A DNA stretch of 64,000 nucleotides from an uncultured Candidatus Saccharibacteria bacterium (GTDB lineage Bacteria; Patescibacteriota; Minisyncoccia; Phycocordibacterales; XYD1-FULL-46-19), in contig CAZEAY010000003.1 of the NCBI GenBank assembly GCA_964510655.1, forward strand, positions 18,924 to 82,923, given 5' to 3'. Below the pieces are notes generated by a model. That model made no database searches. It was not told the origin of the DNA and was given only the letters and a program-made list of their open reading frames with translations. This document shows, in pieces, positions 12,717-55,489 of the stretch; within the stretch, counting starts at the first letter, position 1, and each line of letters begins with the position of its first letter. A program made the translations under genes and the position numbers.

Positions 12717-15700
12717 TTACAAATTATGAATTGAGATCCCAAAGAAAAGATCCCCGATCTTGGTCTCGCCCACACCGGTTTCTAATTCAATTTCAGCCGT
12801 ACCAGTCCCCCGTTTGATTTCCTCAATAAATTTCTTAACCAAGGTTTGTCCTGTTTCGTCGGTTATTATCTTTAAATTAATGATATCTCCCGGATTTAAA
12901 CCTGTTTTTTTACGCAGTTCCTGAATATTACGCATCAATTCGCGCATATCGCCTTCTTCTTTTAATTCTTGAGTAATACTCGTATCTAACCTAACTCCCG
13001 GAAGATCAGGGTCGGCATTTTTTTCAAAAATAACATTTTTAACATTGACTTCGTCTTTAATCAGCTCTTTCAAATGATTCCAATAATTTGGTTCATTCCC
13101 GTCATGTTTTATAATCAAGGCTGACAGTGGTTGTCGAACTTTTATACCATCCACATCTCTCGCCATAAGTCCCATTGAGGCAAATGATCGGGCAAAGCTC
13201 ATTCCAACAATAATATCTTGATCAAATTTCTCGGTGATTGGCCAGCTTTCCAAGTGTACGCTTTCCTTAACTCCCTCAGTTTTACGATAGATATCCTCGG
13301 CAATAAACGGAGTAAATGGCGCCATCATCTTAGCCAAACTATTTAAAATAGTTTTCATTGTAAAAATCGCCCAATTTTTGTCATCAATATCACCTGATTT
13401 AAAACGATCACGTGATCGACGTAAGTACCAATTAGATAAGTCATCGATAAATTCATCAATCGGACGTACAGCACGATCAATTTCATATTTATCCATTGCC
13501 TCCGTTACTTTAGTTACAAGCTCGCCGAATCTGGCATTAATCCAAATATCTAAAACGTTTTCAGATTGACCTTGAACGTCGGCTAATGTTTTTGGGGCAT
13601 ACATCTCATAAAAAGAGTACACATTATTGAGACGCATAATAATTTTACGATAAATTTCTCCTACCCCTTTTTCGGAAAAATTCAAATCCTCTGCTCTCAT
13701 AACTGGAGAGGCCAATAAATAAAAACGTAAGGCATCGGCTCCAAATTTTTCCACCACACTCATTGGATCAGGGTAATTTTTGAGACTCTTAGACATCTTC
13801 TGGCCATCCTCAGCCAAAACCAGTCCATTGACGACTACATTCTTATAACTAGTTTTACCGAACAGAGCGGTGGACAAAACCAACATAGAATAAAACCAAC
13901 CCCGAGTTTGATCGAGACCCTCGGCAATAAAATCGGCTGGAAACCCATTCCCATCACTAGGATCAAAATCTTTCAAATCACTAAAGGGATAATGAGCCTG
14001 ACCATAAGGCATGGAGCCAGATTCAAACCAACAATCAAAAACATCGGGTACTCTAGTCATTTCCCCACCACAACCACAAGCAAACTTTATTTGATCAATA
14101 TACGGACGATGTAGATCAAGATCATAGAGAGTATTGTGTGGTAAAAAAGAAAAATCTAATGACTGAATTTCTGCATTCTTGAAACGTGACCCCCAATGAG
14201 ACATTTTTTCAATCTCTCGACTATTATTACCCGCAGCAGCTGTCATCATAAAAAACAAAGGCAAGCTGTGGCTAACAATCAAAATGTTTTTACCAGTATA
14301 TTTTTCATTCAACTCATACAAGACTTCCCCCATTCGTTTCTTAACCTCTAAACAAGATTCTCCGTTGGTTTGAGATTTAAACAATTTTTCATGTTTAGAG
14401 TTAAAATGCTTATCATACTCTACCCAATTTCCCTCATCAGCATCACCAACATTATATTCTCCCAGGCGGGCATCAAAAATAATTTTATCTTGAGACAAAC
14501 CAATTGTTTGAGCGACGAGCTCAGCCGTTTCTTTGGTTCGAACAAAAGGCGAAGAAATGATTACTTCAATGTTAGATCCCTTTAGACTTTCGGCAGAAGA
14601 AATAACCTGTTCTTTGCCCTCAGTCGTAAGATGATAGTTTTTGCCTAACTTACAATCAATTGTATCGGTCAAATTATTCTCAGACTGACCGTGACGCATT
14701 AAGAAGTAACGATTATTTTTTGTCTGCAAATTATCCTTCAATTCTTGAATGCTCCCAACCACCTTAATTTGTTTACAATCTTCACAGCGCCAAACTGGAA
14801 TTGGAGCGCCCCAAAAACGAGTCCGAGAAATCGCCCAATCACGAGCTCCTTCTAGCCATTTACCAAAACGACCCTCTTTAATATGTTCTGGGACCCAAGA
14901 AATAGTTTTATTGTTCGCCACCAAATCATCACGAAATTTAGTCACCTCAACAAACCACGAAGAAGCGGCGTAATTTAACAATGGAGTACCACAACGCCAA
15001 CAGTGCGGGTAAGAATGAGAAATTTTTTCTTTCGCAAATAAAATTCCTTTAGCCGCCAGGTATTTAATAATTTTTACATCCATCGCTTGGTTTTCCACCG
15101 TAGATGGTCCATCATCTTCTAATCCCGGAGCACTTTTAGGTTTTACTAATTCCCCCACCCAATCGATAACTTCCGGTTTAAACCGGCCATCCATTCCGAC
15201 ATGCTGAATAAATGGTAGTTTTTCTTTTTGACCCAACTTCATATCATCTTCTCCAAAAGCGGGAGCAATGTGTACTACCCCCGTACCATCTTCAGTCGTC
15301 ACAAAATCAGCACCATAAATTTTCCAACCATTTTCCCGATTTTTTATTGTCTCATCAGTAAGGTAATAATCAAAAGCAGGTTGATATTTTTTACCCACTA
15401 AAGTACTACCCTTAAAAGTATCCTCAATAGTATAATCAGAGGCATTACTAAAATTTTTCTCCAAAAGATCTTTAGCGAGAATATAAGAAAGATGATCGTC
15501 GCTATTATTCATTCCAATTTTGACGTAATCAATCTCAGGGTTAACAGCCAAAGCCACATTACCCGGCAAAGTCCAAGGAGTAGTTGTCCAAGCTAAAATC
15601 GAAGTTCCCGGCTCATCAACTAGACCAAACTTAACCACCACCGAGAGATCGGTGATATCTTTATACCCCTGATTCACTTCAAAATTAGATAGAGTAGTCT

Positions 15701-16256
15701 CACAGCGCGGACAAATCTGCATTGATTTATAGCCTTCATAAATCAGACCTTTGTTGTGGAGGTTTTTAAAGATATTCATTACCGACTCGGAATAAGAAGC
15801 ATCCATCGTCCGATAATCGTTTTCCATATCAATGAAACGACCCAATCGTGGCACAATTTGTTTCCAGTCCTCTACATACTCTTGGACCATCTCACGAGCC
15901 TTTTCGTTAAACTTTTCAATACCGTAATCTTCAATATCTTTTTTGGATTTCAAACCGAGTTCTTTTTCCACTAGGTTTTCGGCTGGCAAACCATGACAAT
16001 CCCAGCCCCAACGTCGGCGGACAAAATTACCCTTCATCGTCCAATAGCGAGGAATCACATCTTTCATTGTTCCCCCAACAATATGTCCATAGTGAGGAGT
16101 GCCAGTCGCAAAAGGTGGTCCATCATAAAAGACGTATTCTTTTGCCCCTTTAGTCGTCTCCAGAGTTTTTTCAAAAATTTTATTATCTTGCCAAAACTTT
16201 AAAATTTCTTCCTCTTTCCGAGAGACATCACTTTTATTATTTTTCTCCTCTGTCAT
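12717..16256 (-). CDS. ileS: isoleucyl-tRNA synthetase (type 2) with an inserted histidine-phosphatase domain
   Basis: PHYGH (HIGH), the editing-domain block TTPWTLPGN and KMSKS are present. An extra ~190 aa block (aa ~515-705) carries the RHG..R..E..H histidine-phosphatase signature. Confidence 0.95.
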   Translation of the reverse strand: MTEEKNNKSDVSRKEEEILKFWQDNKIFEKTLETTKGAKEYVFYDGPPFATGTPHYGHIVGGTMKDVIPRYWTMKGNFVRRRWGWDCHGLPAENLVEKELGLKSKKDIEDYGIEKFNEKAREMVQEYVEDWKQIVPRLGRFIDMENDYRTMDASYSESVMNIFKNLHNKGLIYEGYKSMQICPRCETTLSNFEVNQGYKDITDLSVVVKFGLVDEPGTSILAWTTTPWTLPGNVALAVNPEIDYVKIGMNNSDDHLSYILAKDLLEKNFSNASDYTIEDTFKGSTLVGKKYQPAFDYYLTDETIKNRENGWKIYGADFVTTEDGTGVVHIAPAFGEDDMKLGQKEKLPFIQHVGMDGRFKPEVIDWVGELVKPKSAPGLEDDGPSTVENQAMDVKIIKYLAAKGILFAKEKISHSYPHCWRCGTPLLNYAASSWFVEVTKFRDDLVANNKTISWVPEHIKEGRFGKWLEGARDWAISRTRFWGAPIPVWRCEDCKQIKVVGSIQELKDNLQTKNNRYFLMRHGQSENNLTDTIDCKLGKNYHLTTEGKEQVISSAESLKGSNIEVIISSPFVRTKETAELVAQTIGLSQDKIIFDARLGEYNVGDADEGNWVEYDKHFNSKHEKLFKSQTNGESCLEVKKRMGEVLYELNEKYTGKNILIVSHSLPLFFMMTAAAGNNSREIEKMSHWGSRFKNAEIQSLDFSFLPHNTLYDLDLHRPYIDQIKFACGCGGEMTRVPDVFDCWFESGSMPYGQAHYPFSDLKDFDPSDGNGFPADFIAEGLDQTRGWFYSMLVLSTALFGKTSYKNVVVNGLVLAEDGQKMSKSLKNYPDPMSVVEKFGADALRFYLLASPVMRAEDLNFSEKGVGEIYRKIIMRLNNVYSFYEMYAPKTLADVQGQSENVLDIWINARFGELVTKVTEAMDKYEIDRAVRPIDEFIDDLSNWYLRRSRDRFKSGDIDDKNWAIFTMKTILNSLAKMMAPFTPFIAEDIYRKTEGVKESVHLESWPITEKFDQDIIVGMSFARSFASMGLMARDVDGIKVRQPLSALIIKHDGNEPNYWNHLKELIKDEVNVKNVIFEKNADPDLPGVRLDTSITQELKEEGDMRELMRNIQELRKKTGLNPGDIINLKIITDETGQTLVKKFIEEIKRGTGTAEIELETGVGETKIGDLFFGISIHNL

Positions 16257-47405: not shown

Positions 47406-47834
47406 CTAGAACCAGCTGCTATGCCGACGCTTGGACAGGAGGCGGGTCCAACTTTTAGCCTCCCGAGAGATGCTCTGGGCAGTCCTGAGGGCATCGCGCC
47501 CCTCCGACTGAGTCTGGCGACGCAAGGCAATCTCACGGCGAACCTCGCCGTCAAGCTCATGCTGAGTCTGGCGGCGATTCTCCCGATCATCGCGCGACCA
47601 CTCTCTGTCTGCGCGATCCATTTCGATGGCCTGACGATGTGCGTCACGGGACTGTTCCCGATAGCCAGCATACACAGCGGCCGCCTGACCCCGACGCGGA
47701 GTGGTGTTGACTGCCCAGTCAGCACCATTATCGGAAGGGACATAAACTCGGCGGGCGGTAGTCTGGGGGGCTGTAACGCACCCCGTAACCATCAACAAGA
47801 CAAAGAGAAGCAGGCAAACGACAAAATTCTTCAT
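47406..47834 (-). CDS. GC-rich lipoprotein with Arg/Asp/Glu-rich repeats (142 aa)
   Basis: Signal peptide plus lipobox LMVTG|C. The body is rich in RxQ/RDD/RExRR repeats. Very GC-rich relative to its flanks. GAGG ~9 nt before the ATG. Confidence 0.55.
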   Translation of the reverse strand: MKNFVVCLLLFVLLMVTGCVTAPQTTARRVYVPSDNGADWAVNTTPRRGQAAAVYAGYREQSRDAHRQAIEMDRADREWSRDDRENRRQTQHELDGEVRREIALRRQTQSEGRDALRTAQSISREAKSWTRLLSKRRHSSWF

Positions 47835-48963: not shown

Positions 48964-50658
48964 ATGCTCACCTTCGACGAAGATAAACAAAATAAACGAG
49001 TCGATGAACTTCATCTTAAAGAAGCGGAAGGGTTGGCGCAAATGTTGTCACAAAAATACCGGCTACCCTACATTGATTTAACTAAATCTTCTATCAATAC
49101 CGATGCTTTGCGCTTGGTCCCCGAAGACGAAGCACGTTCGGCTGGCATTGCCCCCTTTAAACTACTGGGACGAAATGTTGATATTGCTATTATTACTCCC
49201 AACAACCCAATGATTGCTGATATTGTACGCACTCTTCAAGAAAATAAAGGTATCACCGCCCATCTTTATCTCGCCTCTCAAAGTAGTCTCGATCACGCCT
49301 GGGAACGCTACAAAGAAGCAGGAAAAAGTACTCAAACCGACGCGGGAGTCATTCAGATTTCCGACGAAGCCATTGCTAAATACCTATCAGAATTTAAAAC
49401 AATTGAAGATGTAAAAACAACTCTAGATAAAGAGATTGAAGAAAGTTTACAAATTGGTGGTATTTCAAACTTACTAGAAGTAATTCTTTCTGGCGCTCTT
49501 TCCACCAATGCCTCCGACATCCACATCGAACCAGAAGAGACAACCATCCGTCTTCGTTATCGCTTAGATGGCGTGCTTCACGACGTCGCTGATATTGATA
49601 GTCGTCTCTTCCGTCAAATTGCGGCTCGATTGAAATTAGTTTCCGGAATGAAACTAAATATTCAACAAGCAGCCCAAGATGGACGTTTCGCCATTAAAGT
49701 AGAAGGAACAGAAATAGAAATTCGTGCCTCTATTATCCCTGGTTCCTATGGCGAATCAGTAGTTATGCGTGTTCTTAATCCAAAAAGTATCAATGTGACT
49801 TTTGATAATCTTGGAGTAGATGAACAGCTTTATAAAATATTTGCCAAGGAAATTTCCCGACCAAACGGGATGATTCTTCTCACTGGTCCTACTGGATCTG
49901 GTAAAACAACCACCCTTTATTCTTTTCTTCGTAAAGTAAATTCCACCGAGTCAAAGATTATTACTATTGAAGATCCGATTGAATATCACTTGGAGGGAAT
50001 AAACCAGACTCAAGTAAATCGAACCAAGGGCTACACTTTCCTGTCCGGCTTGCGCGCTTCCCTGCGTCAGGACCCTGACATTATCATGGTGGGAGAAATC
50101 CGTGACTCTGAAACAGCTAAAATTGCCGTAAATGCGTCTTTGACTGGGCACTTGGTCTTTTCCACTCTTCACACCAACAACGCGGCTGGAGCAATTCCAC
50201 GCCTAATTGACCTGGGGGTGAATGCAAAAATCTTGACCTCGGCTCTAACCTTACCAATCGCCCAACGTCTAGTTCGTCGCTTATGCCCTGTCTGTAAAAA
50301 AGAAGATGTTCCAACTCCTGAAGAAAAAAGTTTAATTGACAACGTGGTTACCACTATTAAGAAAAAGAAACCGGAATTGGTTCTACCACAAACAGAAAAG
50401 GTTTGGCGACCAGTCGGCTGTGAGAAATGTAATAAAACTGGTTACAAAGGCCGGGTGGGTGTCTACGAAGCAATCGTTATGGATGACGCGGTCGCTAAGG
50501 TAACAATTGAAAATCCGAGTGAAAAAGAAATCAAAATTGCTGCCATTCCTCAAGGAATTTTGGATATGCGCCAAGATGGTATTCTGAAAATTTTGACAGG
50601 AATAACAGATATGTCAGAACTAGGTCGTGTGGTTGATTTAACAGAAGAGTTTATATAA
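48964..50658 (+). CDS. pilB: type IV pilus assembly ATPase PilB (GspE family), native copy
   Basis: GspII_E N-terminal domain, Walker A LTGPTGSGKTTT, Asp and His boxes, tetracysteine CPVC...CEKC. AT-rich, no SD. Confidence 0.9.
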   Translation: MLTFDEDKQNKRVDELHLKEAEGLAQMLSQKYRLPYIDLTKSSINTDALRLVPEDEARSAGIAPFKLLGRNVDIAIITPNNPMIADIVRTLQENKGITAHLYLASQSSLDHAWERYKEAGKSTQTDAGVIQISDEAIAKYLSEFKTIEDVKTTLDKEIEESLQIGGISNLLEVILSGALSTNASDIHIEPEETTIRLRYRLDGVLHDVADIDSRLFRQIAARLKLVSGMKLNIQQAAQDGRFAIKVEGTEIEIRASIIPGSYGESVVMRVLNPKSINVTFDNLGVDEQLYKIFAKEISRPNGMILLTGPTGSGKTTTLYSFLRKVNSTESKIITIEDPIEYHLEGINQTQVNRTKGYTFLSGLRASLRQDPDIIMVGEIRDSETAKIAVNASLTGHLVFSTLHTNNAAGAIPRLIDLGVNAKILTSALTLPIAQRLVRRLCPVCKKEDVPTPEEKSLIDNVVTTIKKKKPELVLPQTEKVWRPVGCEKCNKTGYKGRVGVYEAIVMDDAVAKVTIENPSEKEIKIAAIPQGILDMRQDGILKILTGITDMSELGRVVDLTEEFI

Positions 50659-51202: not shown

Positions 51203-52240
51203 ATGTCAAGTCTAGACCCTATCACCAACAATGACGAGCCAAACAATGGCTTAGATGAACGTTTTTTGGACAAATCACTCCGTCCGACTGTTTGGGATGA
51301 ATATATTGGGCAAGAGAGCATTAAGGATAATCTAAAGATTTTAATTGGAGCAGCCGCTGGGCGCAAACACCCACCAGAACATCTTCTTTTTTATGGTCCA
51401 CCAGGATTAGGCAAGACTACTCTCGCTCATTTGATTGCCAAACAAATGAATGCTCAACTAAAAGTCACCTCTGGACCGGCCGTAGAAAAAGTTGGTGACC
51501 TAGCTTCAATCCTAACCAATCTTTCTGAAGGTGATATTTTATTTATCGATGAAATTCATCGCTTAAACAAAATGATTGAAGAGGTTTTGTATCCCGCCAT
51601 GGAATCTGGGGTTTTAAATATTATTATCGGCAAAGGCCCGGGCGCGCGCGTAATCCAATTAGATTTACCACCATTTACCTTAATCGCCGCCACCACTCGC
51701 GTAGCTCTCCTCTCTTCTCCACTGCGCTCACGATTTTCCGGCGGAACTCATCGTCTAGAATTTTATACCGAAGCCGAGATTAAAAAAATTATTCTGCGTT
51801 CAGCAAAAATATTACAAATTGAAATTAGCGATGAAGCCGCTCTAGAGATTGCTCGTCGTGCTCGTTTTACTCCCCGGATTGCGAATCAACTCCTTAAACG
51901 TTGTCGCGACTACGCTCAACTTAAAAACAGTTCGATTGATTTAAAAATTGTTAAAGAGGCTCTTAATATGCTCGGTATTGATGAGATTGGTCTAACCACC
52001 CAAGATCGAAAAATTCTGGATATAATTATTTCCAAATTTAACGGTGGGCCAGTGGGTTTGGGAACAGTCGCTACCGCCATGAGCGAAGAAGATGCCACCA
52101 TTGAAGAAGTAAATGAACCCTACTTGATCCAACTAGGTTTAATGGAACGAACTCCCCGCGGTCGAGTCGCCACCAAAAAAGCTTATGAACATTTAGGGTA
52201 TGATTTCCCTAAAAACAAACAGGAAAGTTTGAGTATTTAA
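51203..52240 (+). CDS. ruvB: Holliday junction helicase RuvB
   Basis: LLFYGPPGLGKTTLA Walker A, DEIHRL Walker B, sensor and winged-helix C-terminus. Confidence 0.95.
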   Translation: MSSLDPITNNDEPNNGLDERFLDKSLRPTVWDEYIGQESIKDNLKILIGAAAGRKHPPEHLLFYGPPGLGKTTLAHLIAKQMNAQLKVTSGPAVEKVGDLASILTNLSEGDILFIDEIHRLNKMIEEVLYPAMESGVLNIIIGKGPGARVIQLDLPPFTLIAATTRVALLSSPLRSRFSGGTHRLEFYTEAEIKKIILRSAKILQIEISDEAALEIARRARFTPRIANQLLKRCRDYAQLKNSSIDLKIVKEALNMLGIDEIGLTTQDRKILDIIISKFNGGPVGLGTVATAMSEEDATIEEVNEPYLIQLGLMERTPRGRVATKKAYEHLGYDFPKNKQESLSI

Positions 52241-52284
52241 AAAAAAGAAACCCCTGGGCACATTTCTATGCACCAGGGGTTATT

Positions 52285-53916
52285 TCAAGCAATCGTCGCC
52301 CTCAAGACTTCATCCAATGAAGTTGTCCCGGCAAAAGCCTTAAGACAACCGCTCTGTCTCAGGGTTTTCATCCCCTGTTCGCAAGCGAGCTGTTTGATCG
52401 CATCTGTCGAATGACCGGCATGGATGAAAGTTTTGATTTTCTCATCGCAAACCAGGATTTCATGAATCGGGGTCACCCCCTGATATCCGTCATAACACGA
52501 CTGACAGCCCACTGGACCGCGAACTTGTTGCAAATAGTCGCCATCCTCCAAACCGAGATGTTTTACCATTTCAGTATTTGGCCGGCTAACTCTGGAACAA
52601 GCTTCGCAGAGTTTGCGAACTAATCGTTGGGCGATGATAACCTGAAGAGCATCGGCAATCATAAATCTGGGAATTCCCAAATCAACCAGACGAGAAACCG
52701 CCGACGGAGCATCGTTGGTATGCAGAGTTGAAAGGACTAGATGCCCAGTGAGAGCAGCCTGCAAAGCAACTCCAGCGGTTTCTGTATCTCGCATCTCTCC
52801 AATCATAATCACATCAGGGTTCTGCCTCAAGCAGGCCCGTAAGGAATTGGAGAAATTAAGCCCAGTTCTTTCGTTCGTCTGAGTCTGATTGATTCCCTTA
52901 ATTCGATACTCGATGGGATCCTCGATGGTGATGATCTTTTTATCACGCGTGTTCAGCTCATTAAGCAAGGCACACAACAGGGTTGTCTTGCCAGAACCCG
53001 TCGGTCCCGTCGCCAAGATCGCCCCATTAGGCTTTTGAATAAGGAGCCTTAACATTTCCACATCAGAGTCGCTCAATCCCATTTCACCCAATGTCTTTTG
53101 GGCATTCTTGGGATCAAGCAACCGAAGCGTCACCATCTCACCATATTGCGTCAAAAGAGTAGCGATCCGAATATCATAACTCTGATTACGGTATTCTACT
53201 CGAATGCTCCCATCTTGTGGATGACGACATTCTTCGATTTTCATTCCAGCCCGGCTCTTAAGGAAAGAGACCATACCGAGGAGCCAGCCCGATTTACAAG
53301 GAGGCTCAATGTCGCGCAGACACCCATCAATTCGATATCGAACCACCACACCGTCTTCCCATGGTTCGATACTGATATCTGAGGCACGCTCGCGAATTGC
53401 TCCACAAAGAATGGCCCCTACCAAGTGCTCATTCCCAACCACCTTCGGCAGAACACCTCCCTCTGGTAGGATAAGTTCTCCGGGACGCTCCCCAACAGGT
53501 GGAGGATTCTCGTTTGCTTTTACAATGACCTCCATCTGATTTCCCGCTTTGGAGTAAAACCTCTCAAGACAAATGAGAATATCTTTCTCCAAAGCGAGTA
53601 TCGGTTCGATTCCAACATCGCCAATCTCATAAGGAAGTCGATCTGTAAGCTCAAGGTTGCCCGGATCATTGGTGGCGACAGCCAAACGATTTGATTCGGA
53701 ATTGAACCTAATCGCCACGATACAATACTTCCGAGCAATCTCTTCAGGAATCATTTTGACCACAATCGGATCAAGCGATTCTGGTCTCAATTCCATTGGT
53801 TTGGGCAACAAGGATTGTTCAAAGGATGAAGAGATTGAGCCTGGATGAGCCGCATCTCCTATACGTTCCACATTCCTTGCCAATTGACCATCACCTCCAT
53901 TACCCGGTCGAGACAT
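52285..53916 (-). CDS. GspE/PilB-family secretion ATPase, GC-rich foreign-looking copy
   Basis: N-terminal GspII_E_N-like domain, ATGPTGSGKTT Walker A, and His and Asp boxes. Visibly ~50% GC. GAGGAGGG sits 7 nt before the ATG at 53914-53916. Confidence 0.85.
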   Translation of the reverse strand: MSRPGNGGDGQLARNVERIGDAAHPGSISSSFEQSLLPKPMELRPESLDPIVVKMIPEEIARKYCIVAIRFNSESNRLAVATNDPGNLELTDRLPYEIGDVGIEPILALEKDILICLERFYSKAGNQMEVIVKANENPPPVGERPGELILPEGGVLPKVVGNEHLVGAILCGAIRERASDISIEPWEDGVVVRYRIDGCLRDIEPPCKSGWLLGMVSFLKSRAGMKIEECRHPQDGSIRVEYRNQSYDIRIATLLTQYGEMVTLRLLDPKNAQKTLGEMGLSDSDVEMLRLLIQKPNGAILATGPTGSGKTTLLCALLNELNTRDKKIITIEDPIEYRIKGINQTQTNERTGLNFSNSLRACLRQNPDVIMIGEMRDTETAGVALQAALTGHLVLSTLHTNDAPSAVSRLVDLGIPRFMIADALQVIIAQRLVRKLCEACSRVSRPNTEMVKHLGLEDGDYLQQVRGPVGCQSCYDGYQGVTPIHEILVCDEKIKTFIHAGHSTDAIKQLACEQGMKTLRQSGCLKAFAGTTSLDEVLRATIA

Positions 53917-53976
53917 TTACCTGCCCTCCTCACGAATTTAGGATTTTTATCCAAAAGTTATGGGTTTAATTTACTC

Positions 53977-54008
53977 TGTCAAATATCTATATTCATGACT
54001 AGTTTTTA
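53977..54008 (-). promoter_or_regulatory. possible promoter of the GC-rich GspE-like gene
   Basis: Minus strand TTGACA (53977-53982), 16-nt spacer, TAACTT. Confidence 0.3.
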
Positions 54009-54051: not shown

Positions 54052-54576
54052 TCAAACTATTTTTAAAGCAAAAATTATTCTTTCACAAATCTCAGCAGGA
54101 GTTAAGTGTGTGGAATCAATAACTAAATCAAAAGCAGTATCGGGCGCCAATTCGTTTATTCCGTAAAATTCTTGGTAACGCAGTTCACCATCGTGTTCAC
54201 GTCTGAGAGTTTTGGCTTCCGCTTCTGAAAAAGAAAGATTGTCTCGTGTTGCGACTCTAGTTATTCTCACTTGATCAGAGCAAATTATTTTCACTTTAAA
54301 AGAATCGGGAACAAAGTACCAACCAAGACGACTCTCTAAAACAAAATTATCATTTTCCTTCCCAAGTTTTTCTGTCGCCTGGTCTATCGCCTTATCATAT
54401 TCAGAATCGGCATTGCATAGCAATTCAAATTCATACAAAGAAAGGCCCAATTCAGAGGCCTTTTGTCTAAAAATATTTCCTGTTGAGACAAACTGGTAGC
54501 CCAGTTGTTCTGCCAGCAACCTGCCTAAAGTAGTTGTGCCCGTCCCCGCTAACCCAAAAATAGTTACTTTTGCCAT
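54052..54576 (-). CDS. cytidylate-kinase-like P-loop kinase
   Basis: GLAGTGTTTLGRLLAEQLGYQFVSTGNIFRQ matches the Cmk-type N-terminal pattern. 174 aa. Confidence 0.55.
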   Translation of the reverse strand: MAKVTIFGLAGTGTTTLGRLLAEQLGYQFVSTGNIFRQKASELGLSLYEFELLCNADSEYDKAIDQATEKLGKENDNFVLESRLGWYFVPDSFKVKIICSDQVRITRVATRDNLSFSEAEAKTLRREHDGELRYQEFYGINELAPDTAFDLVIDSTHLTPAEICERIIFALKIV

Positions 54577-54682
54577 AATTAATCATAGCAGATTTTTGTT
54601 TCCTGACAATTTTTGACTTTCCCTAGTCTAATTCATATACTGGGGATAATCTTTATCCGCCAAAGTTTTTGCCAATGGCATT

Positions 54683-54952
54683 ATGCAATACGTCTATGTA
54701 ATATACAGCAAAAGTGCTGGAGAGCTTTATACAGACTGTACAAATGATCTAAAGAAAAGACTTGCATTGAATAATGCCAGAAAAGTAAAATCAATAATGG
54801 GGAAAGTTCCATTCGAGCTCGTGTTTTATGAAGCATTTTCTAATAAACATGATGGGTTCGAACGAGAGCAATATTTAAAAACTGGATGGGGAAGAAATTA
54901 TATTAAAAAAGTCGCTCGAAATTATTTTATTGGCAAAAATTTAGGAGGATAA
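54683..54952 (+). CDS. GIY-YIG nuclease-domain protein (YhbQ/UPF0213-like)
   Basis: YVYVIYS...GELYTDCTNDLKKRL...H block of GIY-YIG. Confidence 0.7.
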   Translation: MQYVYVIYSKSAGELYTDCTNDLKKRLALNNARKVKSIMGKVPFELVFYEAFSNKHDGFEREQYLKTGWGRNYIKKVARNYFIGKNLGG

Positions 54953-55489
54953 ATGTCAGGACATAATAAATGGTCACAAATTAAAGTACAAAAAGGAAAG
55001 ACCGATGCTCAAAAAAGCAAAGTTTTTACTATGTATGCCAAAATCATTACGATGGAAGCTAAAAAAGCCAAGGGCGATAAAAATGCTCCAGGACTAAAAG
55101 CGGCTATCGAGCGAGCTAAATCATTTAACGTTCCCAATGATAATATCGACCGTGCGATTAAAAAAGGTGTTGGTTCAGAAAGTAACTCACTAGAGGAGGT
55201 TATTTATGAAGGCTATGGACCAGGTGGAGTAGCTTTCCTCCTGGAAGGAATCACTGACAACAAAAACCGCACGACTCAAGAAATAAAACACATTCTTTCG
55301 CGTAATGGCGGGAATTTAGGTCTCCAGGGTTCGGTGATGTGGGCGTTTCAAAAAACGGCTGACGGCTATGAAGCAATTTCTCCGATGGATATTTCCGAAA
55401 CAGACAAAGAAGCCGTTGAAAGACTTTATGTAGAACTTGAAGACTACGAAGACATCAAAAGCATTTTTACCAATGCTAATTTAGACTAA
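54953..55489 (+). CDS. YebC/PmpR-family DNA-binding regulator (short form)
   Basis: MSGHNKWSQIKVQKGKTDAQKSKVF N-terminus, in the conserved position upstream of ruvC. Confidence 0.8.
   Translation: MSGHNKWSQIKVQKGKTDAQKSKVFTMYAKIITMEAKKAKGDKNAPGLKAAIERAKSFNVPNDNIDRAIKKGVGSESNSLEEVIYEGYGPGGVAFLLEGITDNKNRTTQEIKHILSRNGGNLGLQGSVMWAFQKTADGYEAISPMDISETDKEAVERLYVELEDYEDIKSIFTNANLD

Follow-up and report, generated by a model that had tools for sequence, protein, structure and literature searches.

The 64,000-nucleotide stretch of contig CAZEAY010000003.1 analyzed here (the window) encodes, near its native pilB, a GC-rich second ATPase of the PilB/GspE class, and we use the label A2 for this gene and for the family to which it belongs. 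The reading that we favor, with a rough probability of 0.55, is that A2 is a functional orphan second extension motor that is horizontally exchanged among related bacteria of the candidate phyla radiation (CPR) at a hot spot between the ruvB and yebC genes. The genomes compared below point to a rare accessory gene that is gained, lost, or swapped at one variable spot and stands outside the inherited core genome. Judged by its sequence, the A2 protein is a motif-defined variant of a well-known motor family, and it is the behavior of the gene in the population that appears unusual. Under the favored reading, old and deeply diverged A2 alleles would be exchanged or replaced between related members of the CPR. 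The probable route is homologous recombination via the conserved flanks after DNA uptake, which would explain the fixed position and orientation of the gene.

The contents of the ruvB|yebC junction were surveyed in ten genomes, whose RuvB proteins are 81-93% identical where ruvB is on the contig. The left flank is ruvB itself (51203..52240, plus strand; identified by Pfam), and the right flank is yebC (54953..55489, plus strand; identified by Pfam and by its synteny in about 60 loci of Paceibacteria). A member of the A2 family occupies the junction in four genomes (the window and contigs L162, L164, and L001), the junction is empty in one, and unrelated cargo is found in the other five. Three of the five relatives of the window gene are thus placed on contigs of related Paceibacteria, at the same junction and in the same orientation. 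The closeness of these hosts to the window is evident from their housekeeping genes: L162 has 93% identity in ruvB and 87% in pilB; L164 has 81% and 72%, respectively, and is syntenic over the full dnaA..polA block; and L001 has 88% identity in yebC and 86% in ruvC. Six further close relatives (L212-L217, RuvB 86-90% identical) all lack A2. In L212, ruvB and yebC are separated by just 113 bp, whereas the cargo in the remaining genomes consists of a 216-aa open reading frame (ORF) and cmk (L213), cmk and a Ser/Thr-rich 207-aa ORF (L214), a 404-aa ORF (L215), DUF5680 and cmk (L216), and a 190-aa ORF (L217). Nucleotide similarity between the window and L162 breaks off at the 3' end of ruvB and returns within the cmk-like kinase gene (54052..54576, minus strand; Pfam Cytidylate_kin2), a co-resident cargo gene that is present in five of the ten genomes. 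No direct repeats flanking the A2 cassette were found. The two other members of the family lie on short contigs among unrelated neighbors, and on one of these contigs, with a GC content of 0.56, all genes are preceded by a Shine-Dalgarno (SD) sequence.

Divergence of the A2 copies is out of proportion to that of their hosts. In the same genomes, overall identity is 40-52% for A2, 72-89% for native PilB, and 81-93% for RuvB. The window A2 is 44%, 42%, and 52% identical to its homologs in L162, L164, and L001, respectively, and those three are mutually 40-45% identical. In the catalytic domain, the A2 copies share 58-63% of their residues, which is no more than A2 shares with any PilB (60%), whereas native PilB is 89-97% identical. 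Moreover, A2 identity hardly changes with host distance, being 44% between the window and L162 and 42% between the window and L164, for which the native PilB proteins have diverged by 13% and 28%, respectively. Synonymous sites are saturated at the distances seen among A2 copies.

A neighbor-joining tree of A2 and PilB proteins (530 columns, 200 bootstraps), a phylogeny of the two ATPases having been suggested in an earlier note on this DNA, placed A2 outside the native CPR PilB clade, with 100% support for each of the two clades; A2 is not nested within native PilB. A2 is 37-39% identical to PilB/GspE proteins of other phyla and 28-34% identical to native CPR PilB. The possibility that A2 is a recent duplicate of the native pilB was rejected in view of these separate clades and of the 34% identity between the two ATPases of the window. 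Within the A2 clade, the window and L001 copies pair with 82% bootstrap support, and a grouping of the four syntenic copies without the two non-syntenic ones was recovered in 1% of the replicates. The nearest relative of the window on the PilB+RuvB tree is L212 (90% bootstrap), which has the empty site, and the A2-positive genomes are scattered across both the PilB+RuvB and the YebC+RuvC trees.

The same data bear on a different history, in which A2 is an old resident that arose from a single acquisition or duplication at the base of the clade and was then inherited vertically at ruvB|yebC, with several losses and a runaway divergence caused by relaxed or diversifying selection. Such a history would fit the shared slot and orientation in four related genomes (with the outgroup-most L164 among them), the sister relationship of the window and L001 copies together with the promoter-block and terminator-stem sequences that they have in common, and the monophyly of the family. 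However, it would require an approximately 13-fold or greater acceleration of the catalytic domain (39% divergence compared to 3% for native PilB between the window and L162) while the motifs stayed invariant, and a divergence that is independent of host distance. Copies from non-syntenic contigs, one of them with a GC content of 0.56, interleave with the syntenic ones; the GC content at third codon positions (GC3) of about 0.46 has not ameliorated in hosts with a core GC3 of 0.28-0.36; and at least three independent losses would be needed. Since a purely vertical history demands this more than tenfold acceleration, these losses, and the lack of GC3 amelioration, exchange or replacement of divergent alleles is favored, and we regard long-term residence as unlikely.

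The composition of A2 sets it apart from the rest of the window. Its GC content is 0.482 compared to 0.389 for the window, and its GC3 is 0.460 compared to a mean of 0.334 (standard deviation 0.041) for the other 49 window ORFs of at least 150 aa (z=+3.05), in agreement with the GC-richness seen in the earlier note. The fit of A2 to the synonymous-codon usage of the window is the lowest of the 50 ORFs (z=-2.9), and A2 is the sole window ORF with a codon usage that fits the higher-GC relative L001 at least equally well. The GC content forms a plateau of 0.46-0.50 over the cassette with sharp edges at ~52250 and ~53900. By its GC content, GC3, and codon fit, A2 is the clearest compositional outlier of the window. 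In every host, the GC content of A2 is 0.48-0.49 (genomic GC of the hosts 0.39-0.46), a value that equals the GC content of ruvB and pilB in the higher-GC clade members L164, L213, and L214. Because A2 in this respect equals ordinary genes of higher-GC members of the clade, a within-clade donor is at least as likely as a distant one. The window copy would then have come from a higher-GC, SD-using donor, which was probably a higher-GC relative and not a distant phylum. The case also advises caution, as anomalies in GC content and SD use need not mean transfer from a distant phylum; with genomic GC spanning 0.34-0.48 in this clade, exchange among its members fits the signature as well.

Searches for the family and for a donor covered about 15 billion proteins overall, with 1.84 billion cluster representatives scanned exhaustively by HMMER. 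The A2 family comprises six sequences among these proteins, each a singleton cluster at 90% identity. A word-index search returned a single relative with more than 45% identity (P0002, 52%), and the exhaustive HMMER scan added P0134, P0136, P0137, and P0138. All six family members have the motif [LI][ENK]PP[PCS]xx[GS]W in the N2 domain (aa 203-211 of A2), and the rest of the top-150 representatives lack it. The window gene carries this motif, falls in the monophyletic clade, and has the single-gene context by which the family is defined. No candidate donor with more than 52% identity was obtained from the word-index search, the HMMER scan of the 1.84 billion representatives, or the JGI metagenomes, and no sequence outside the family exceeded ~47% identity to A2, the best outside matches being 41-47% identical depending on the collection.

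These searches also weigh on the idea that A2, without any history in the lineage, arrived in a single recent import from an unrelated phylum that is GC-rich and uses SDs, either as the GspE of a type II secretion system (T2SS) or as a foreign PilB. The compositional anomaly of A2 with its SD, its position slightly nearer to the PilB/GspE proteins of other phyla than to the native PilB of CPR bacteria, and the family member on the SD-rich contig of GC 0.56 would all agree with such an origin. On the other hand, the best non-family match is only 41-47% identical in each collection searched, the recognizable hosts of the other members are sister genomes with A2 at the same junction, the GC content is ordinary for higher-GC members of the clade, no secretin or T2SS genes were found, and the scores against PilB and GspE models are tied. 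We therefore judge a distant one-off import to be distinctly improbable. The proposal of the earlier note that A2 was horizontally acquired holds in part: the gene is accessory and mobile, is not a pilB duplicate, is absent from L212 and five other relatives, and is atypical in composition and SD use. The part that does not hold is a one-off import from afar, given the same-slot homologs in L162, L164, and L001 and a GC content that matches clade members. A phage- or plasmid-like origin of A2 found no support; the best matches in IMG/VR and INPHARED are at most 41% identical over the full length, and neither an integrase nor flanking direct repeats were found.

Two observations arose alongside the family searches. 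Tandem-fused double PilB ATPases with two T2SSE domains and a length of about 970-1050 aa are common (P0003-P0005, P0121-P0135, and P0270-P0297), several of them being labeled as Minisyncoccia or Patescibacteria. High-scoring matches of 876-1047 aa were rejected as close A2 relatives on these grounds, since tandem-fused double ATPases mimic close relatives through their summed scores. In addition, the genes of L164 (GCA_034680565.1, JAXOUH010049819.1) had been called with TGA as Trp, which adds five residues to P0138 and carries two further ORFs past their stop codons; because TGA is a stop codon in L164, the true A2 homolog there would have 556 aa when read with code 11.

The interval 52241-53982 holds a single ORF, the A2 coding sequence (52285..53916, minus strand; 543 aa, supported by the ORF list, Pfam, and AlphaFold2). 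As the earlier note had read from the letters alone, the protein has a GspII_E-like N-terminal domain, a Walker A motif, and Asp and His boxes, all of which were recovered by Pfam and motif reading. The N1 domain of the GSPII_E/MshEN type covers aa 42-125 (53542..53793, minus strand; PF05157, E-value 4.7e-12, 46.2 bits compared to a cutoff of 23.1). N2 and the RecA-like C-terminal ATPase domain cover aa 164-539 (52300..53427, minus strand) and match the T2SSE family PF00437 with an E-value of 5.8e-116 (387.6 bits compared to a gathering cutoff of 24.9; profile positions 10-370 of 370). Motif reading located the Walker A motif GPTGSGKTT, which is invariant in the family, at aa 304-312 (52981..53007), the Asp box IITIEDPIE at aa 328-336 (52909..52935), the Walker B motif DVIMIGEMRD at aa 368-377 (52786..52815), and the His box TGHLVLSTLHT at aa 390-400 (52717..52749), all on the minus strand. 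The core residues of these four boxes are unchanged across 40 aligned homologs.

The family alignment further revealed a tetracysteine (zinc) motif of the kind typical of PilB/GspE, C437-x2-C440 ... C471-x2-C474 (52495..52608, minus strand), whose four cysteines are invariant in all six family members and in all 40 aligned PilB/GspE homologs. The tetracysteine arrangement of the native copy had been reported as missing from A2; this is incorrect, and only the loop between the two Cys pairs is shorter (30 aa, CxxC-30-CxxC, compared to 41 aa in native PilB). In total, A2 has 15 cysteines compared to 4 in native PilB. The N-terminus (aa 1-36) is disordered in the AlphaFold2 model (predicted local distance difference test, pLDDT, below 50 for aa 1-32) and carries the family-conserved motif [GA]DGxLx[RK], in which D9 is invariant in the family alignment. 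The remainder of the model (mean pLDDT 85.6) consists of the N1 domain (pLDDT 84-92), a flexible linker, and a core made of N2 and the C-terminal domain (CTD). By reading the A2 sequence, without a formal test, no tandem MshEN motifs that bind cyclic di-GMP were visible.

Structural and profile comparisons place A2 among the extension motors. The best sequence matches in the Protein Data Bank (PDB) are PilF of Thermus thermophilus and PilB of Myxococcus and Geobacter (1e-103 to 1e-101), followed by GspE, with PilT far behind (1e-34). The A2 core superimposes on the core of T. thermophilus PilF (5oiu) with a Foldseek E-value of 9.4e-47, a TM-score (target) of 0.94, and a root-mean-square deviation of 1.8 A, whereas the PilT and DotB structures match the A2 model far worse (~1e-24). 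Against the NCBIfam equivalog models, A2 scored 454.3 bits for PilB (TIGR02538, cutoff 675.65) and 455.6 bits for GspE (TIGR02533, cutoff 630.25), and the native PilB, with 489.3 and 478 bits, respectively, is also below both cutoffs. The T2SS alternative in the earlier note finds no support in these tied, below-cutoff scores, nor was a secretin found. A role as a PilT/PilU retraction ATPase was ruled out by a score of 186.7 bits against TIGR01420 (cutoff 319.1) and by the presence of N1 and the four cysteines; PilT/PilU proteins are about 350 aa long and have neither N1 nor the tetracysteine. Based on the Pfam domains, the intact motifs, the PDB ranking, and the AlphaFold2 superposition, we conclude that A2 is a complete extension-type motor of the PilB/GspE class, neither a retraction ATPase nor a pseudogene. 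The preservation of catalytic and zinc-binding residues in a family that is overall only 40-52% identical indicates that the family has been under sustained selection for a working ATPase.

A2 also carries its own expression signals. A perfect AGGAGG lies within the SD GAGGAGGG (53924..53931, minus strand), 8 nt upstream of the ATG, as described earlier. This is exceptional in a genome that is nearly SD-free, with 42 of the 50 window ORFs of at least 150 aa having no SD-like motif, and AGGAGG or AAGGAG is also found upstream of the A2 homologs in L001 and L162. A putative promoter (53955..53992, minus strand) consists of TTGACA (53977-53982), a 16-nt spacer, and TAACTT (53955-53960), within a 16-nt block ATATAGATATTTGACA that occurs upstream of the L001 cassette as well. 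At the other end, a strong intrinsic terminator (52241..52280, minus strand; called by folding energy) is formed by a 14-bp stem at 52250-52280 followed by UUUCUUUUUUUU. The hairpin, which the earlier note had described as a terminator shared by A2 and ruvB, has a folding free energy of -23.9 kcal/mol (z=-4.84) and its U-tract on the ATPase side, and it fills the 44-bp convergent gap to ruvB. The L001 cassette ends in a terminator with a similar stem, AACCCCTGG...CCAGGGGTT. With its own SD, terminator, and probable promoter, A2 appears to be a self-contained one-gene cassette.

AGGAGG or AAGGAG is found on several junction accessory genes of the clade, namely A2, the L213 216-aa ORF, the L216 DUF5680 gene, and small ORFs of L001. 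One of the latter genome's ORFs (L001 2189..2335, plus strand) encodes a 48-aa hydrophobic protein, has a strong SD and its own terminator, and lies between the ATATAGATATTTGACA block and the A2 homolog; the window lacks this ORF.

The role of A2 can be approached through its relatives. CPR bacteria (Patescibacteria) rely on type IV pili (T4P) for host binding, movement, and probably DNA uptake, and N1 of GspE binds GspL, a PilM-type partner being inferred for PilB. By analogy with PilB and GspE, A2 would assemble into a hexamer and dock on a membrane platform of the PilC type and, via N1, on a PilM/GspL-type partner, and its ATP hydrolysis would push pilin subunits out of the membrane into a growing filament. 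The gene is an orphan in all six contexts, with no pilC, pilT, pilM, or pilin gene adjacent. Because no second platform or pilin set lies near A2 in these contexts, it probably depends on components whose genes lie in another part of the genome, or it competes for the host's own PilC/PilM platform, giving rise to an alternative filament. The N1 domain is 18% identical to that of native PilB, which is compatible with, and no proof of, a different docking partner.

The orphan context likewise lends itself to a role outside the pilus. The fast-diverging A2 could have a regulatory function, serve as a decoy, or belong to a conflict system in which it titrates, for example, phage or host factors directed at the motor. 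Its GC content would then have been raised by GC-biased gene conversion at a hot spot of recombination and would not reflect the composition of a donor. In line with this idea, the junction also holds a GIY-YIG mini-element and the kinase that resembles the pVip-kinase and VakA defense models, A2 is rich in cysteine, and another hypervariable gene, across the pilB-ruvB pair from the junction, is GC-rich, too (0.594). However, A2 has no close phage or viral relatives, and it keeps the full PilB architecture with all catalytic residues, which argues for a working motor. PADLOC returned just weak matches that are limited to the P-loop (best E-value 7.5e-5, 20 bits), so that A2 was rejected as a defense-system component. 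We consider a non-pilus role very unlikely.

A further reading retains the motor function and shifts the emphasis to selection. Ancient A2 allelic lineages might be kept circulating in the ruvB|yebC slot by balancing or diversifying selection and shuffled by recombination, while the GC-richness would stem from GC-biased gene conversion. The cytoplasmic motor would then resemble a surface antigen in its behavior, for example if phage or host-cell factors targeted it or if each allele matched a different variable pilin/platform set used in host recognition. GC-biased gene conversion at hot spots in an AT-rich genome would enrich both A2 and the lipoprotein-like gene described below. We put this forward tentatively and hold it to be rather doubtful.

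Several points weigh against exchange of a functional extension motor at the hot spot, the reading that we favor. Neither a donor nor a recombination tract was identified. The neighbor-joining tree was built on a long-branched clade, a vertical signal could be hidden by saturation, and the tree places the family only tentatively at depth. The host could be recognized for four of the six family members, the other two being P0136 and P0137 (the latter on L163), and the analysis covered 64 kb of the window genome and no more than 21.7 kb of each relative. The six contexts of A2 include no linked cognate platform, pilin, or PilM paralog, so that the role in filament assembly is assigned by homology. 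Finally, the promoter TTGACA-16-TAACTT proposed in the earlier note has a perfect -35 element, but its -10 element TAACTT agrees with TATAAT at three of six positions; the consensus scan did not call it, and the putative promoter must thus be considered weak.

Among known systems, the closest in architecture are PilB/PilF proteins such as T. thermophilus PilF and the Geobacter and Myxococcus PilB. They share with A2 the domain order N1, linker, N2, and CTD, the Walker A/B, Asp, and His boxes, and the zinc tetracysteine, and A2 is 43-45% identical to the solved cores. In contrast to them, A2 is below the PilB equivalog cutoff, is not encoded with pilC, pilT, or pilins, and has its own PPxxxGW motif in N2, a disordered N-terminus of ~36 aa, a shorter Cys loop, and 15 cysteines. 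GspE/EpsE proteins have the same fold and likewise an N1 domain (4pht match), and their profile score for A2 equals that of PilB. Unlike these proteins, A2 is below the equivalog cutoff, and no secretin, GspL, GspF, or pseudopilin genes were found in the window. CPR cells are considered to have no outer membrane, so that a classical T2SS would have nothing to cross.

The motor ATPase is normally among the most conserved components of a pilus. For two extension motors in a reduced genome, PilB2 of TM7x (Nanosynbacter lyticus, Saccharibacteria) seems the best functional analogy: in this cultivated bacterium, the one system that has been studied by genetics, PilB1 belongs to the apparently essential T4P-1, and PilB2 is required for the thin host-binding T4P-2 pilus (PMC11623550). 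Like A2, PilB2 is a second PilB of a dispensable type beside a core PilB in a CPR bacterium. The two differ in that pilB2 belongs to a near-complete locus (pilC2, pilM2N2O2, pilin), whereas A2 is a lone cassette, and the hypervariability and patchy distribution seen for A2 have not been described for PilB2.

Allelic replacement islands between conserved flanks, such as the pilA/accessory-gene groups beside pilB in P. aeruginosa and the pneumococcal capsule loci, offer a parallel for the slot. By analogy, they resemble the A2 junction in having divergent alleles or alternative cargo at a fixed position, with conserved flanks and no integrase or attachment repeats. They differ in that A2 is a cytoplasmic motor and not a surface-exposed antigen. 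The A2 locus presents a second motor as swappable cargo in uncultivated Paceibacteria, being present, absent, or 40-50% identical between genomes with ~90% identical housekeeping proteins. Should host range or phage pressure prove to be linked to the motor allele, the locus could serve as a marker with conserved flanks for primers or read recruitment, which would permit the study of strain-level adaptation and gene flow in unculturable organisms.

The host assignment and the gene neighborhood were examined in parallel. Among the genes of the window are recA, genes for ribosomal proteins and tRNA synthetases, dnaA, dnaN, rnpA, pilM with two small transmembrane (TM) ORFs, and pilB. A scan of GTDB species representatives with YebC led to Paceibacteria/Parcubacteria at no more than 59% identity, and the closest named RuvB is that of 'Candidatus Vogelbacteria', from which we place the host as a Vogelbacteria-like Paceibacterium of the CPR. 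The gene order polA(-) tsaE(-) pilB(+) ruvB(+) yebC(+) ruvC(+) tyrS(-) pbp(+) is kept across the ~60 Paceibacteria loci, where every match to A2 is the native pilB ortholog (34-44% identity). The ruvB and yebC genes are directly adjacent in many of these loci and 0.5-7 kb apart in others. The native pilB of the window (48964..50658, plus strand; 564 aa) was identified by Pfam, groups with other Paceibacteria PilB, and is vertically inherited. It had been described as AT-rich, SD-less, and 1.6 kb from A2; the distance and the lack of an SD stand, but its GC content of 0.418 is not low compared to 0.389 for the window, and the absence of an SD is the norm in this genome.

PilM lies ~17 kb from A2. 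Of the resident 'pilMNO' machinery assumed earlier, PilM alone gives a Pfam match, and the two downstream single-TM ORFs give none. No PilC, PilT, PilD/prepilin peptidase, secretin, GspL, GspF, or pseudopilin domain was found in any Pfam-scanned ORF of the 64-kb window, and the prepilin motif G[FMYW][TS][LIV][LIVM]E has no match in any frame of the window. These results agree with the earlier statement that A2 has no cognate platform, pilin, or secretin gene in the window.

Other features of the junction and its surroundings deserve mention. The cmk-like kinase (54052..54576) matches the PADLOC models pVip-kinase (4e-29) and VakA (9e-13). Adjacent to yebC, an 89-aa GIY-YIG ORF (54683..54952; Pfam GIY-YIG 2e-9) with its bracketing repeats occupies 54652..54953 on the plus strand; the repeats are inverted, 25 nt long, and 88% complementary, and the ORF abuts the yebC start. 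The ORF and its inverted repeats look like a small selfish element, and the AGGAGG seen upstream of yebC comes from the last codons of the ORF. YebC/TACO1 itself is 177-178 aa long in the window and its close relatives (with one 196-aa gene call in L216), and its PF01709 match comprises the first 56 of 160 positions; the protein is short in the window and in all close relatives, and therefore the truncation is lineage-wide.

Between tsaE and pilB, a 142-aa ORF (47406..47834, minus strand; GC 0.594) encodes a lipoprotein-like protein with a signal peptide and the lipobox LMVTGC. The corresponding slot of the relatives holds equally GC-rich, barely alignable lipoprotein-like ORFs (35-41% identity, or none), and by these comparisons the ORF is a second hypervariable GC-rich gene beside the conserved pilB-ruvB pair. 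The GC-rich patch at 47.4-47.85 kb was rejected as an RNA gene, as it has no Rfam or tRNA match and corresponds to this ORF. Elsewhere in the window, the isoleucyl-tRNA synthetase (12717..16256, minus strand; 1179 aa) contains an inserted His_Phos_1 domain at aa 518-702 (E-value 6e-30).

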